Positions 47,943 through 49,971 of a stretch of 64,000 nt of DNA are shown one piece after another (position 1 is the first letter of the stretch; each line of letters begins with the position of its first letter). The notes below the pieces were generated by a model. That model worked only from the letters and a program-made list of their open reading frames with translations, was not told the origin of the DNA and searched no databases. The position numbers and the translations under genes are program-made. The DNA comes from a virus, in IMG/VR virus record IMGVR_UViG_3300046170_000301, one strand, 5' to 3'.

Positions 47943-49971
47943 TCAACCAATCACTGGTGCTTTGAGAGCCACAGGAGTGGATTCAACGGAGGCAAGATCC
48001 AAGGGAAAGTTGTGTGCGTTCCTTTCGTGCATCACCTCAAATCCAAGGTTTGCTCGGTTGAGGATGTCAGCCCAAGTGTTGATAACACGACCCTCAGACT
48101 CCACAATAGACTGGTTGAAATTGAAACCATTAAGGTTAAAGGCCATAGTAGACACGCCAAGAGCAGCGAACCAGATACCAATAACAGGCCAAGCAGCCAG
48201 AAAAAAGTGAAGGCTACGGGAGTTATTAAACGAGGCATATTGGAAAATCAGACGACCAAAGTAACCATGAGCAGCTACGATGTTGTATGTTTCTTCTTCT
48301 TGTCCAAACTTGTATCCGTAGTTTTGGGAGTCTTGTTCTGTGGTTTCACGAACGAGAGAAGAAGTAACCAGACTTCCGTGCATAGCACTAAAGAGGCTGC
48401 CACCGAATACCCCAGCCACACCGAGCATATGGAAGGGATGCATAAGGATGTTGTGTTCTGCTTGGAAGACGAGCATGAAGTTGAACGTTCCCGAAATTCC
48501 AAGAGGCATTCCATCACTGAAGGAACCTTGACCGAAAGGATAGACAAGGAACACTGCAGAAGCAGCGGCAACAGGAGCAGAATAAGCAGTACAAATCCAA
48601 GGACGCATACCCAGACGATAGGAGAGTTCCCACTCTCGACCCATATAAGAGAAGACACCGATAAGGAAGTGGAAGACCACTAGTTGATAAGGACCACCAT
48701 TATATAGCCACTCATCGAGGCTGGCAGATTCCCAGATTGGATAGAACACATAACCCATAAGTTTCCTTATGGTGCTGACTATATCATCACCCTAAATTGA
48801 GGGTGTCGGGCGCTAATGTCGTATTACAGGTCACGCTTGACCAACCGACTAGTCGATGAACCTTACACAGAAGTATCGTCTGTGTCTTGGCTGCTGATTG
48901 CCATACCAGTAAAAGGGTTAGGTTTCCAGCAATTCACCCGATTTTCTTATACCATTACTGATATAAGGCACTCCTTTACGAATGCAATCCAATCGCATTA
49001 GAACTTGGAACAACAGCACCAGAAATGATGTTGTTTCCATACATGAGTGAACCAGAAACAGGTTCACGAATCCCGTCGCCTACATCTAACAAACAACCAT
49101 ATCTTTTGACTTAGGTTGTTTCTGTTGACGGATTTGATTTGCTCGTTTTGCATTTTCTACTCTTCCACCATTTTCTACCCACTCTTTCCAAGTTTGTAGA
49201 TGAGAAATACATTCGGTTATTCTTTCTGCTCGTCGTACTCCCATATAAGGAAGTATTTTTTGTAGAATGAATAATACCTTTTCTTTTTCTCCAATGTGAA
49301 GTGTATAAACTTGTTTACCTTTTACAGTTTTTCTTGATGGTGAGAAATAAGACTTATCTAAAAGTTTACTCAACCTTTGGATAATATCTTCATCTACCAT
49401 AGAAACTTTAATAAAAGGTGCTGGTGGTATTTTAGAAACTTCATAACGGTCTTTGGAACGATTATCTATTCCAAAGTATCCTTCACCTTCTAATAAACCA
49501 GCAATCCAAGCAACATCAGTTTCAGTTAGGTTTAACATTTTACTCTTGCATCTTCTGTATTATTTATACAGCATTAGCAAGAAAAAGTCAACAGTAGATG
49601 TGTGGACTATATCTTCACCCTTCATAGAAGGGGCTGGGCACTCTAGCCTGTTATTAAGAGGACTGAACCTCTCAGGTAGTCTCTGAACCTTCCTTAGGTG
49701 TACCTAAGGCTTGGCTGCTGATTGCCTTTCGGTTTCCAGCAATTCACCCAGTTTCGTCAATACTCTTACGAGTAAGGGACACCGATTAGTTAATGTCTAC
49801 GGGTGGTGCTCCAATAAAAGCAACGATGAAGCAGACAGTTGCGGCGAGCAACGTTGGAATCATTAGGGTTCCAAACCATCCGACATAAAGACGATTGTTT
49901 GTTGAAGTAACCCACTCACAGAATGATTCCCAGACGTTAATTCGTTGAGGTCTAAGAACTGTAGTTGTCAT
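47943..49971 (-). CDS. psbA: photosystem II D1 protein; three exons (49793-49971, 48982-49078, 47943-48746), 359 aa spliced
   Basis: [34 protein letters not shown] and [14 protein letters not shown]; exons sum to 1080 nt in frame. Confidence 0.97.
48747..48981 (-). mobile_element. group I intron 2 in psbA (ORF-less, 235 nt, after CDS nt 276)
   Basis: exon ends in U and intron ends in G; P1 GCAU|UC pairs with GAGUGC with U.G at the junction; P AATTGCTGGAAA, Q AATCAGCAG, R TCATCGACTA, S GATATAGTC. Confidence 0.92.
49086..49538 (-). CDS. single-motif LAGLIDADG homing endonuclease (intron-encoded)
   Basis: [13 protein letters not shown] motif; lies after the S element. Confidence 0.85.
49561..49568 (-). 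promoter_or_regulatory. T4-type late promoter inside intron 1
   Basis: exact TATAAATA 22 nt upstream of the endonuclease ATG. Confidence 0.75.

Follow-up and report, generated by a model that had tools for sequence, protein, structure and literature searches.

Two group I introns in the psbA gene of an uncultured cyanophage and their relation to introns of green-algal chloroplasts

Introduction

The psbA gene of an uncultured, T4-like cyanophage raises two related questions: why its coding sequence is divided into three pieces, and whether the sequences that divide it are related to the introns that interrupt psbA in green-algal chloroplasts. The gene lies in a metagenome-derived stretch of 64,000 nucleotides (nt), IMG/VR record IMGVR_UViG_3300046170_000301; the whole of this stretch is referred to below as the window. 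An original prediction, made from the window sequence alone, placed two group I introns in this gene, after coding nt 179 and 276, and raised the prospect of intron exchange between phages and plastids. The explanation that best accommodates the evidence assembled here, and which is very probably correct, is that psbA in the window is a three-exon gene interrupted by two group I introns of subgroup IA.

Phage genes with mobile group I introns are textbook cases, and so are the introns of chloroplast psbA. The introns of the T4 genes td, nrdB, and nrdD (sunY), with the endonucleases I-TevI, I-TevII, and I-TevIII, belong to subgroup IA and have their open reading frame (ORF) looped out of the ribozyme; they spread by double-strand-break repair with co-conversion of flanking sequence. 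In green-algal chloroplasts, I-CreI, I-CvuI, and I-MsoI are homodimeric enzymes from ribosomal RNA introns, and single-motif LAGLIDADG enzymes in general dimerize. The two fields have been treated as separate. The locus described here points to one element, comprising ribozyme, endonuclease, and target site, that is common to a virus of cyanobacteria and to the plastids of green algae.

Structure of the psbA gene

The gene lies on the minus strand (−), to which the coordinates of its exons, introns, and their parts refer. Exon 1 (49971-49793; 179 nt, last base U) was delimited from the ORF list and the sequence; it encodes D1 residues 1-59 and two bases of the Ile60 codon, and by blastn it aligns with nt 29-179 of intronless psbA. 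It is followed by intron 1 (49792-49079; 714 nt, last base G), a predicted group I intron of subgroup IA type at site 179, and by exon 2 (49078-48982; 97 nt, last base U), which runs from the final base of codon 60 to His92. Intron 2 (48981-48747; 235 nt, last base G) is likewise a predicted group I intron of IA type, located at site 276 and lacking an ORF, and exon 3 (48746-47943; 804 nt including the stop codon) encodes D1 residues 93-359. Intron 1, exon 2, and intron 2 together span 1046 nt (48747-49792). Joining the exons produced a 1080-nt ORF for a 359-amino-acid D1 protein with a cyanobacterial-type C terminus. Across the junctions the protein reads ...APPVDI/DGIRE... (intron 1) and ...AIGLH/FYPIWE... 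(intron 2); the site-179 junction falls inside the codon for Ile60 and the site-276 junction between His92 and Phe93.

Alignment of the locus with the intronless psbA of S-CREM1 by blastn revealed breaks at reference nt 179/180 and 275-277, and a junction search under the U/G rules of group I introns returned sites 179 and 276. These results, together with the Rfam matches described below, bear out the predicted positions of both introns, their agreement with the group I junction rules, the restored 359-residue D1, and the 97-nt length of exon 2. Because the N terminus of D1 is of canonical length, site numbers in this psbA equal those of the Mesostigma numbering. A reading frame that continues from the exon into intron 1 is stopped at a distance of two codons, and in intron 2 at a distance of one, so unspliced psbA RNA would be nonproductive.

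Group I intron structure

Both introns matched the Rfam group I family (RF00028, Intron_gpI; gathering threshold 50 bits) over the full model, positions 1-253, with scores of 67.7 bits for intron 1 and 106.8 bits for intron 2. Each is preceded by U and terminated by G. The predicted P1 helix of intron 1 joins GACAU, at the end of the exon, to the guide GUGUC, and a U.G pair is formed at the 5' splice site; in the P1 helix of intron 2, GCAU together with the first two intron bases, UC, pairs with GAGUGC, again with a U.G pair. An insert of 34-35 nt between P7 and P3' in both Rfam alignments corresponds to the P7.1/P7.2 extension of subgroup IA. The narrower assignment to IA1 is based on homology to the chloroplast intron Oc.psbA.1 (see below) and not on a classifier.

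The core of intron 2 was assessed through the Rfam alignment. For intron 1, an alignment (A2) of 15 site-179 introns was available, drawn from the window, viral contigs, and plastid-type contigs. RNAalifold applied to A2 recovered P1 (its U.G pair invariant in all 15), P2, P3, P4, P5, P6, and P8, and compensatory changes on both sides were evident in 17 of the 46 predicted pairs. P7 (GACUA/UAGUC) was invariant among these introns, and P7.1/P7.2 covaried in site-179 relatives (GAGAGG/CCUCUU, GAGGAG/CUCCUU, and GAGGGA/UCCCUU). According to the Rfam alignment and A2, the ribozyme core of intron 1, from P1 to P7 with P7.1/P7.2, occupies 49586-49802. The 5' strand of P9, ACAUCUA (49601-49595), is complementary to the 3' strand, UAGAUGU (49088-49082), which adjoins the 3' splice site, and the helix closes an ORF-bearing loop. 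P9 also covaries, being CAUUUA/UAAAUG in L012 (comparison loci are designated by L numbers) and ACAUUUUCAA/UUGAAAAUGU in the plastid-type loci L120 and L121.

The original prediction had also drawn attention to identical core strings in the two introns. Two such strings do occur exactly twice each in the window, with one copy per intron and 0 expected in shuffles, but no special relationship follows from them. They represent the P3-P6 core, most positions of which are invariant across the 15 introns of A2, the plastid-type members included; because of this conservation, the strings mark the intron class and not a particular tie between intron 1 and intron 2. In a blastn-type comparison, the two introns of the window have only patches of 17-38 nt in common.

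The intron 1 endonuclease

Loop L9 of intron 1 contains an intact gene (49538-49086) for a predicted single-motif LAGLIDADG homing endonuclease of 150 amino acids, whose stop codon is located within the 3' strand of P9, 7 nt ahead of the 3' splice site. The LAGLIDADG motif reads IAGLLEGEG (residues 12-20), and E17, E19, K75, and R102/R103 are invariant in 17 homologues. The protein matched Pfam PF14528 (LAGLIDADG_3) with 23.4 bits (cutoff 22.5). An AlphaFold model (predicted local distance difference test score, 89.2) was compared with known structures by Foldseek, and the best matches were I-CreI, I-CvuI, and I-MsoI (probability 1.00, E ~5e-6, template modeling scores of 0.56-0.63). By motif, family, and modeled fold, the protein has the features expected of an I-CreI-like single-motif LAGLIDADG homing endonuclease.

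The intronless target is near-palindromic about nt 177/178, with 7 of 9 half-site positions symmetric, and only 2 of the 1040 axes in psbA, the nt 177/178 axis among them, reach that level. This near-symmetry is intrinsic to the site because of its Asp-Ile-Asp codons. Upstream of the endonuclease gene, a box matching the T4-type late-promoter consensus, TATAAATA, is found at 49568-49561, 22 nt before the start codon. The IMG/VR phage rows of A2 retain the box, in full or, for rows whose excerpt stops within it, in its initial part; L008 has a variant (CTAAATA), and the plastid-type rows lack the box. It represents a putative late promoter of the endonuclease ORF.

Relation to chloroplast psbA introns

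Chloroplast introns are known at both sites, as stated in the original prediction. In the chloroplast DNA of Oedogonium cardiacum, Oc.psbA.1 is an IA1 intron at site 179 with a single-motif LAGLIDADG ORF of 184 codons in L9, and Oc.psbA.2 is an IA1 intron at site 276 with an HNH ORF in L5 (PMC2442088, Table 4). Floydiella Ft.psbA.2 is an ORF-less IA1 intron at site 276 (PMC2997540), and the psbA-179 intron of Ulva, 695 base pairs (bp) long, encodes a single-motif LAGLIDADG protein (PMC10151680).

A profile search with the phage enzyme retrieved the O. cardiacum protein YP_002000412 (184 amino acids; 49% identity, E 2e-57), which is identified as the product of Oc.psbA.1 because that intron holds the only 184-codon LAGLIDADG ORF in Table 4 of PMC2442088. 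The similarity extends to the ribozyme. Over its first 84 nt, intron 1 matches the plastid-type loci L120 and L121 with 87-88% identity and an identical guide sequence, and further core segments are 76-97% identical. The enzymes of L120 and L123 belong to the 90% cluster of the Oedogonium protein itself, and those of L121 and L122 to a neighboring cluster. L120 and L121 have introns at 179, 276, 384, and 408, which is the Oedogonium pattern, and L122 and L123 reach only to site 276; ccsA is found nearby on L123, and exon 1 of all four loci encodes a green-plastid D1 N terminus. A psbA intron at site 179 is also present on a 107-kb contig (L005:5593-7384; GCA_006365115.1, VFQT010000156.1), where the LAGLIDADG ORF is 55% identical to the phage enzyme. 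This contig is assigned to a plastid because it encodes a 353-amino-acid, green-type D1 and psaA-psaB adjoin the gene; NCBIfam and PHROGs yielded no identification for its neighboring genes.

Intron 1 shares its insertion site, the L9 position of its ORF, and its enzyme family with both Oc.psbA.1 and the Ulva psbA-179 intron, and its size is close to that of the latter (714 versus 695 nt). It differs from Oc.psbA.1 in residing in a virus of cyanobacteria, between exons that encode D1 of cyanobacterial type, and in having a shorter ORF (150 versus 184 amino acids). Across the alignment, phage site-179 introns have a short P6 and the TATAAATA box before the ORF, whereas plastid-type introns have an expanded P6 and lack the box. 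Judged from these sequences, intron 1 is clearly the same mobile element as the psbA-179 intron of green-algal chloroplasts, in its phage version. The phage-plastid exchange that was originally suggested is strongly supported for site 179 by the identity of the enzymes and of the 5' part of the ribozymes; its standing at site 276, discussed below, is only partial. In a 62-enzyme tree, one clade united the phage sequences, the window included (Shimodaira-Hasegawa-like approximate likelihood ratio test [SH-aLRT] support, 97), and another those in plastid context (99). The separation of the two clades indicates that the split is not recent, and the tree carries no direction of transfer. A link between phage and plastid psbA introns is not stated in the literature searched, the scope of which did not extend to Millard 2004/2010, Zeng 2009, and Xu 2018, where it may be noted.

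Intron 2 and site 276

The longest ORF in intron 2 comprises 13 amino acids. The flanks of the intron (nt 1-67 and 67-235) are 96-97% identical to those of the site-276 intron of S-SRM01 (NC_070963), a freshwater phage, and 100% identical to those of L130; between the window and S-SRM01, the psbA exons reach an identity of only ~78-90%. The S-SRM01 intron occupies the same site and differs in carrying an ORF. Alignments by blastn with S-SRM01, L125-L131, and L133 break at intron nt 67, and the L5 insert point following this nucleotide (48915 in the window) is where relatives, S-SRM01 and L130 among them, have a 675-nt insert with an HNH ORF, confirmed by Pfam. Several metagenome and metatranscriptome contigs stop exactly at 48915, suggesting that ORF-plus and ORF-minus forms of the site-276 intron coexist in those samples. 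On the strength of these alignments, intron 2 is taken to be an endonuclease-less form of the HNH-bearing site-276 intron of S-SRM01.

Features in common with chloroplast introns are found here too. The HNH ORF of the phage form is in L5, as in Oc.psbA.2, and the ORF-less state of intron 2 matches Ft.psbA.2. When the S-SRM01 HNH ORF was used as the query, the best matches were plastid-type site-276 ORFs (114 and 100 bits; 33-36% identity), and phage HNH ORFs at site 645 scored close behind (92-80 bits). The site-276 ribozymes of the window and of plastid-type loci have only core patches of 30-41 nt in common. The relationship at site 276 therefore seems partial: the site and the ORF family are common to phages and plastids, and the link is weaker than at site 179.

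These modest similarities could also be produced by convergence, in which the VDIDG and GLH/FYP codons simply make good targets and unrelated introns and endonucleases landed on them independently in phages and plastids. The small margin by which the plastid site-276 ORFs outscore the phage site-645 ORFs is compatible with that scenario, as are the short patches common to the ribozymes and a site-179 target that is near-palindromic by itself. It is harder to reconcile with site-179 enzymes that are 49-55% identical between phage and plastid, with their placement in L9 in both, and with the 87-88% identity of the first 84 nt of the intron, guide sequence included. The distribution of insertion sites adds to the difficulty. 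The phage psbA sites that could be cleanly resolved are 179, 230, 276, 325, 499, 548, 645, 750, 890, and 1002, and five of these ~10 (179, 276, 548, 645, and 750) coincide exactly with published chlorophyte sites (PMC2442088, PMC10151680). Convergence is accordingly considered unlikely. We tentatively entertain a common origin instead, in which phages and green-algal chloroplasts draw on one pool of psbA introns; phages may be the reservoir or vector, or the reverse may hold, and the 179/276 pair may be one composite mobile unit that needs a single endonuclease gene.

Distribution and mobility

More than 100 clusters of close homologues of the intron 1 endonuclease were found in metagenomes. 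Deposited phage genomes contained no homologue of >60% identity, the best (~35%) being in actinophages. A motif search of one genome per prokaryote species (~185,000) returned only distant LAGLIDADG genes (≤37% identical), from Actinomycetota and Chloroflexota. No cyanobacterial copy was present among these species-representative genomes, although unsampled strains could still carry one. It is because no close relative of the endonuclease was found in these ~185,000 genomes that phages, and not cyanobacteria, are proposed as a possible reservoir.

Twenty-six IMG/VR contigs carry the endonuclease. In 24 of them it lies within psbA, at site 179 wherever the junction is on the locus; of the other two, L033 has a free-standing copy downstream of psbA and L025 ends before the downstream exon. 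A PhotoRC-II leader, which is typical of cyanophage psbA, is present in 9 of the 12 endonuclease contigs scanned. Compared with the window across the 26 contigs, intron 1 is 87-96% identical, exon 1 71-85%, and exon 3 74-85%. The greater conservation of the intron than of the exons on either side indicates recent mobility between diverged psbA alleles, and on this sequence evidence intron 1 appears to have moved recently among phage psbA genes. The stretch itself was found in independent runs labeled seawater, marine, and lake water.

An intron that is more conserved than its exons shows the pattern of a spreading selfish element, and this bears on the proposal that the introns are kept as regulators, with splicing efficiency tuning D1 synthesis with light and mobility being secondary. 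Light-linked splicing has reportedly been observed for the psbA introns of S-PM2 and Chlamydomonas, and the stop codons one or two codons into each intron would render unspliced RNA nonproductive. However, at least one of the two introns is missing from most related phage psbA genes, and no sign of a light sensor was seen in the sequence; retention for regulation is thus regarded as quite unlikely, and spread of a mobile intron 1 as the better account. An assembly artefact, in which plastid intron DNA was joined to phage psbA exons, is scarcely credible: the window is metagenome-derived, and similar samples do contain green-algal plastid DNA bearing these introns, but the 26 viral contigs come from many samples and have phage-type exons, most of those scanned have the PhotoRC-II leader, the phage and plastid enzymes form separate, well-supported clades, and the stretch recurs in independent runs.

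Paired introns

Alleles with introns at both sites fall into two configurations. In the window and L031, the site-179 intron carries the LAGLIDADG ORF and the site-276 intron is ORF-less. In L125, L126, and L130, the site-179 intron is ORF-less (251-322 nt) and the site-276 intron has an ORF-size insert; an HNH ORF was read in L125 and L130, and L126 ends inside the insert. The ORF-less site-179 introns (L125:702-2147, L126, and L130) retain, besides the ribozyme, 30-80 nt from the end of the ORF region. Exactly one ORF-bearing intron was present in all five of the fully scored double-intron alleles, a sample too small for a statistical test, and none was seen with both introns or neither intron bearing an ORF. 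As a hypothesis, this distribution would be compatible with co-conversion of a neighboring intron 97 bp from the break. An additional locus, L129, combines the HNH form of the site-276 intron with a site-179 intron of which at least the 3' end is present before the stretch breaks off. Where a site-276 intron has no site-179 neighbor, it is ORF-bearing in S-SRM01, L127, L128, L131, and L133.

Proposed mechanism

In the working model, each intron would be excised from the transcript by guanosine-initiated, two-step transesterification, generating the 1080-nt messenger RNA for the 359-amino-acid D1. The intron 1 enzyme, possibly expressed in the phage version from the T4-type late-promoter box ahead of its ORF, would act as a homodimer on the near-palindromic intronless target CCCGTAGAC/ATCGACGGG. 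With an I-CreI-like, 4-nt staggered cut centered at nt 177/178, the top strand would be severed where the intron inserts. Intron-free psbA alleles of coinfecting phages would be cut in this way, and intron 1 would be copied in through double-strand-break repair. Intron 2 would be unable to home alone. Its persistence would most likely reflect vertical descent, a trans-acting HNH enzyme supplied by related phages, or co-conversion with intron 1; in the last case intron 2 might conceivably hitch-hike, being 97 bp from the break.

Several observations weigh against parts of this account. Site-276 introns without an ORF are also found where no site-179 intron is present (L132 and L134), and of the 20 other viral contigs scored as having a site-179 intron, a single one (L031) has a site-276 intron as well. 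Gene content and intron pattern, and not a named record, are the basis for assigning L120-L123 to plastids, and the Pfam score of the endonuclease barely exceeds the cutoff. Splicing and cleavage are themselves predicted from the DNA sequence. Contigs from three metatranscriptome runs and one DNA run were compared with 47900-50050 at a 90% likeness threshold, and RNA contigs joining 49078 to 49793 (skipping 714 nt) and 48745 to 48981 (skipping 235 nt) were found, each in a different run. These joints are not diagnostic of splicing, because their short sides measure 22-30 nt and the DNA run contains intronless alleles at the corresponding positions; they are indistinguishable from the psbA of other organisms.

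Comparison with other phage systems

Phage psbA genes with two or more introns are already in public records, with two introns in S-CBWM1, three in S-SRM01, and four or more in environmental contigs. The psbA gene of S-CBWM1 (NC_048106) resembles that of the window in having two annotated group I introns, one with an endonuclease ORF. It differs in its insertion sites (~649 and ~1007) and in an ORF that has no Pfam match. S-SRM01 psbA (L001:1321-3726) has three group I introns (276, 750, and 1002) and four exons. Its record shows two partial psbA fragments annotated 'photosystem II D1' with ORF320, 'homing endonuclease', between them, and the last two exons are unannotated. Gene callers fragment split psbA genes, as this record illustrates, and surveys that use cyanophage psbA as a marker can consequently miss or misassemble such alleles. 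Five Rfam group I matches within psbA were found in each of the IMG/VR loci L028, L030, L031, and L034, and four junctions were resolved in L031. Several of these introns carry HNH ORFs, and the sites in these loci include 230, 325, 499, 548, 645, ~890-960, and 1002. Specific to the window are the pairing of sites 179 and 276, the LAGLIDADG enzyme in common with chloroplasts, and the ORF-less partner intron.

The psbA intron of S-PM2 and the free-standing endonuclease F-CphI constitute 'collaborative homing', according to PMC6083498, which cites Zeng et al. 2009. As stated in the original prediction, the S-PM2 intron is single and near the 3' end of the gene; it was located at site 1002. Like the window introns, it belongs to the same broad group I class and resides in a cyanomyovirus psbA, and core segments match. 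It is ORF-less and depends on a neighboring Endo VII-type nuclease, whereas the nuclease of the window lies inside intron 1 and belongs to the LAGLIDADG family. According to the ORF list, no F-CphI-type or other nuclease ORF flanks psbA in the window, including at the position occupied in S-PM2, and the collaborative arrangement is in that respect absent.

An arrangement closer to that of F-CphI was observed on L033 (L033:2326-3980; IMGVR_UViG_3300022752_000951). Here the homologue of the intron 1 enzyme, with 86% identity across 140 residues, is free-standing and located ~85 nt downstream of a psbA gene that lacks introns. The locus contains no group I intron, and the target region of its psbA is diverged (GGAGTAGACATTGATGGTATTAGAGAAATG). 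By analogy, this configuration could represent a step in the assembly or break-up of an intron-endonuclease combination.

The td, nrdB, and nrdD introns of T4 resemble those of the window in being IA introns of a T4-like phage, with an endonuclease that is probably expressed late. The T4 enzymes, however, are of the GIY-YIG or HNH families and not LAGLIDADG, and the genes that host these introns serve nucleotide metabolism. The site-179 element is apparently absent from sampled cyanobacterial genomes, and it offers a testable case of cross-domain spread through a highly conserved target. Modeled as a compact I-CreI-type nuclease, the intron 1 enzyme would also have a defined natural target in almost every oxygenic phototroph.

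Flanking sequences

A consensus scan identified a sigma-70-like promoter, TTGACA-17-TATTAT, upstream of psbA (50075-50047, −), with 11 of 12 matches, to be read as a consensus match only. No PhotoRC-II match at the Rfam gathering threshold was obtained upstream of psbA in the window, unlike in many relatives. Downstream of the gene, a consensus scan found a terminator-like hairpin followed by a T run (47917-47896, −). The ORF directly 3' of psbA (47633-47950) encodes 105 amino acids with a CGYC motif and is glutaredoxin-like by reading. Elsewhere in the window (46131-46229 and 22339-24207, −) are a glutamine riboswitch aptamer (RF01739, 38.9 bits) and three transfer RNA genes, which are consistent with a T4-like cyanophage.

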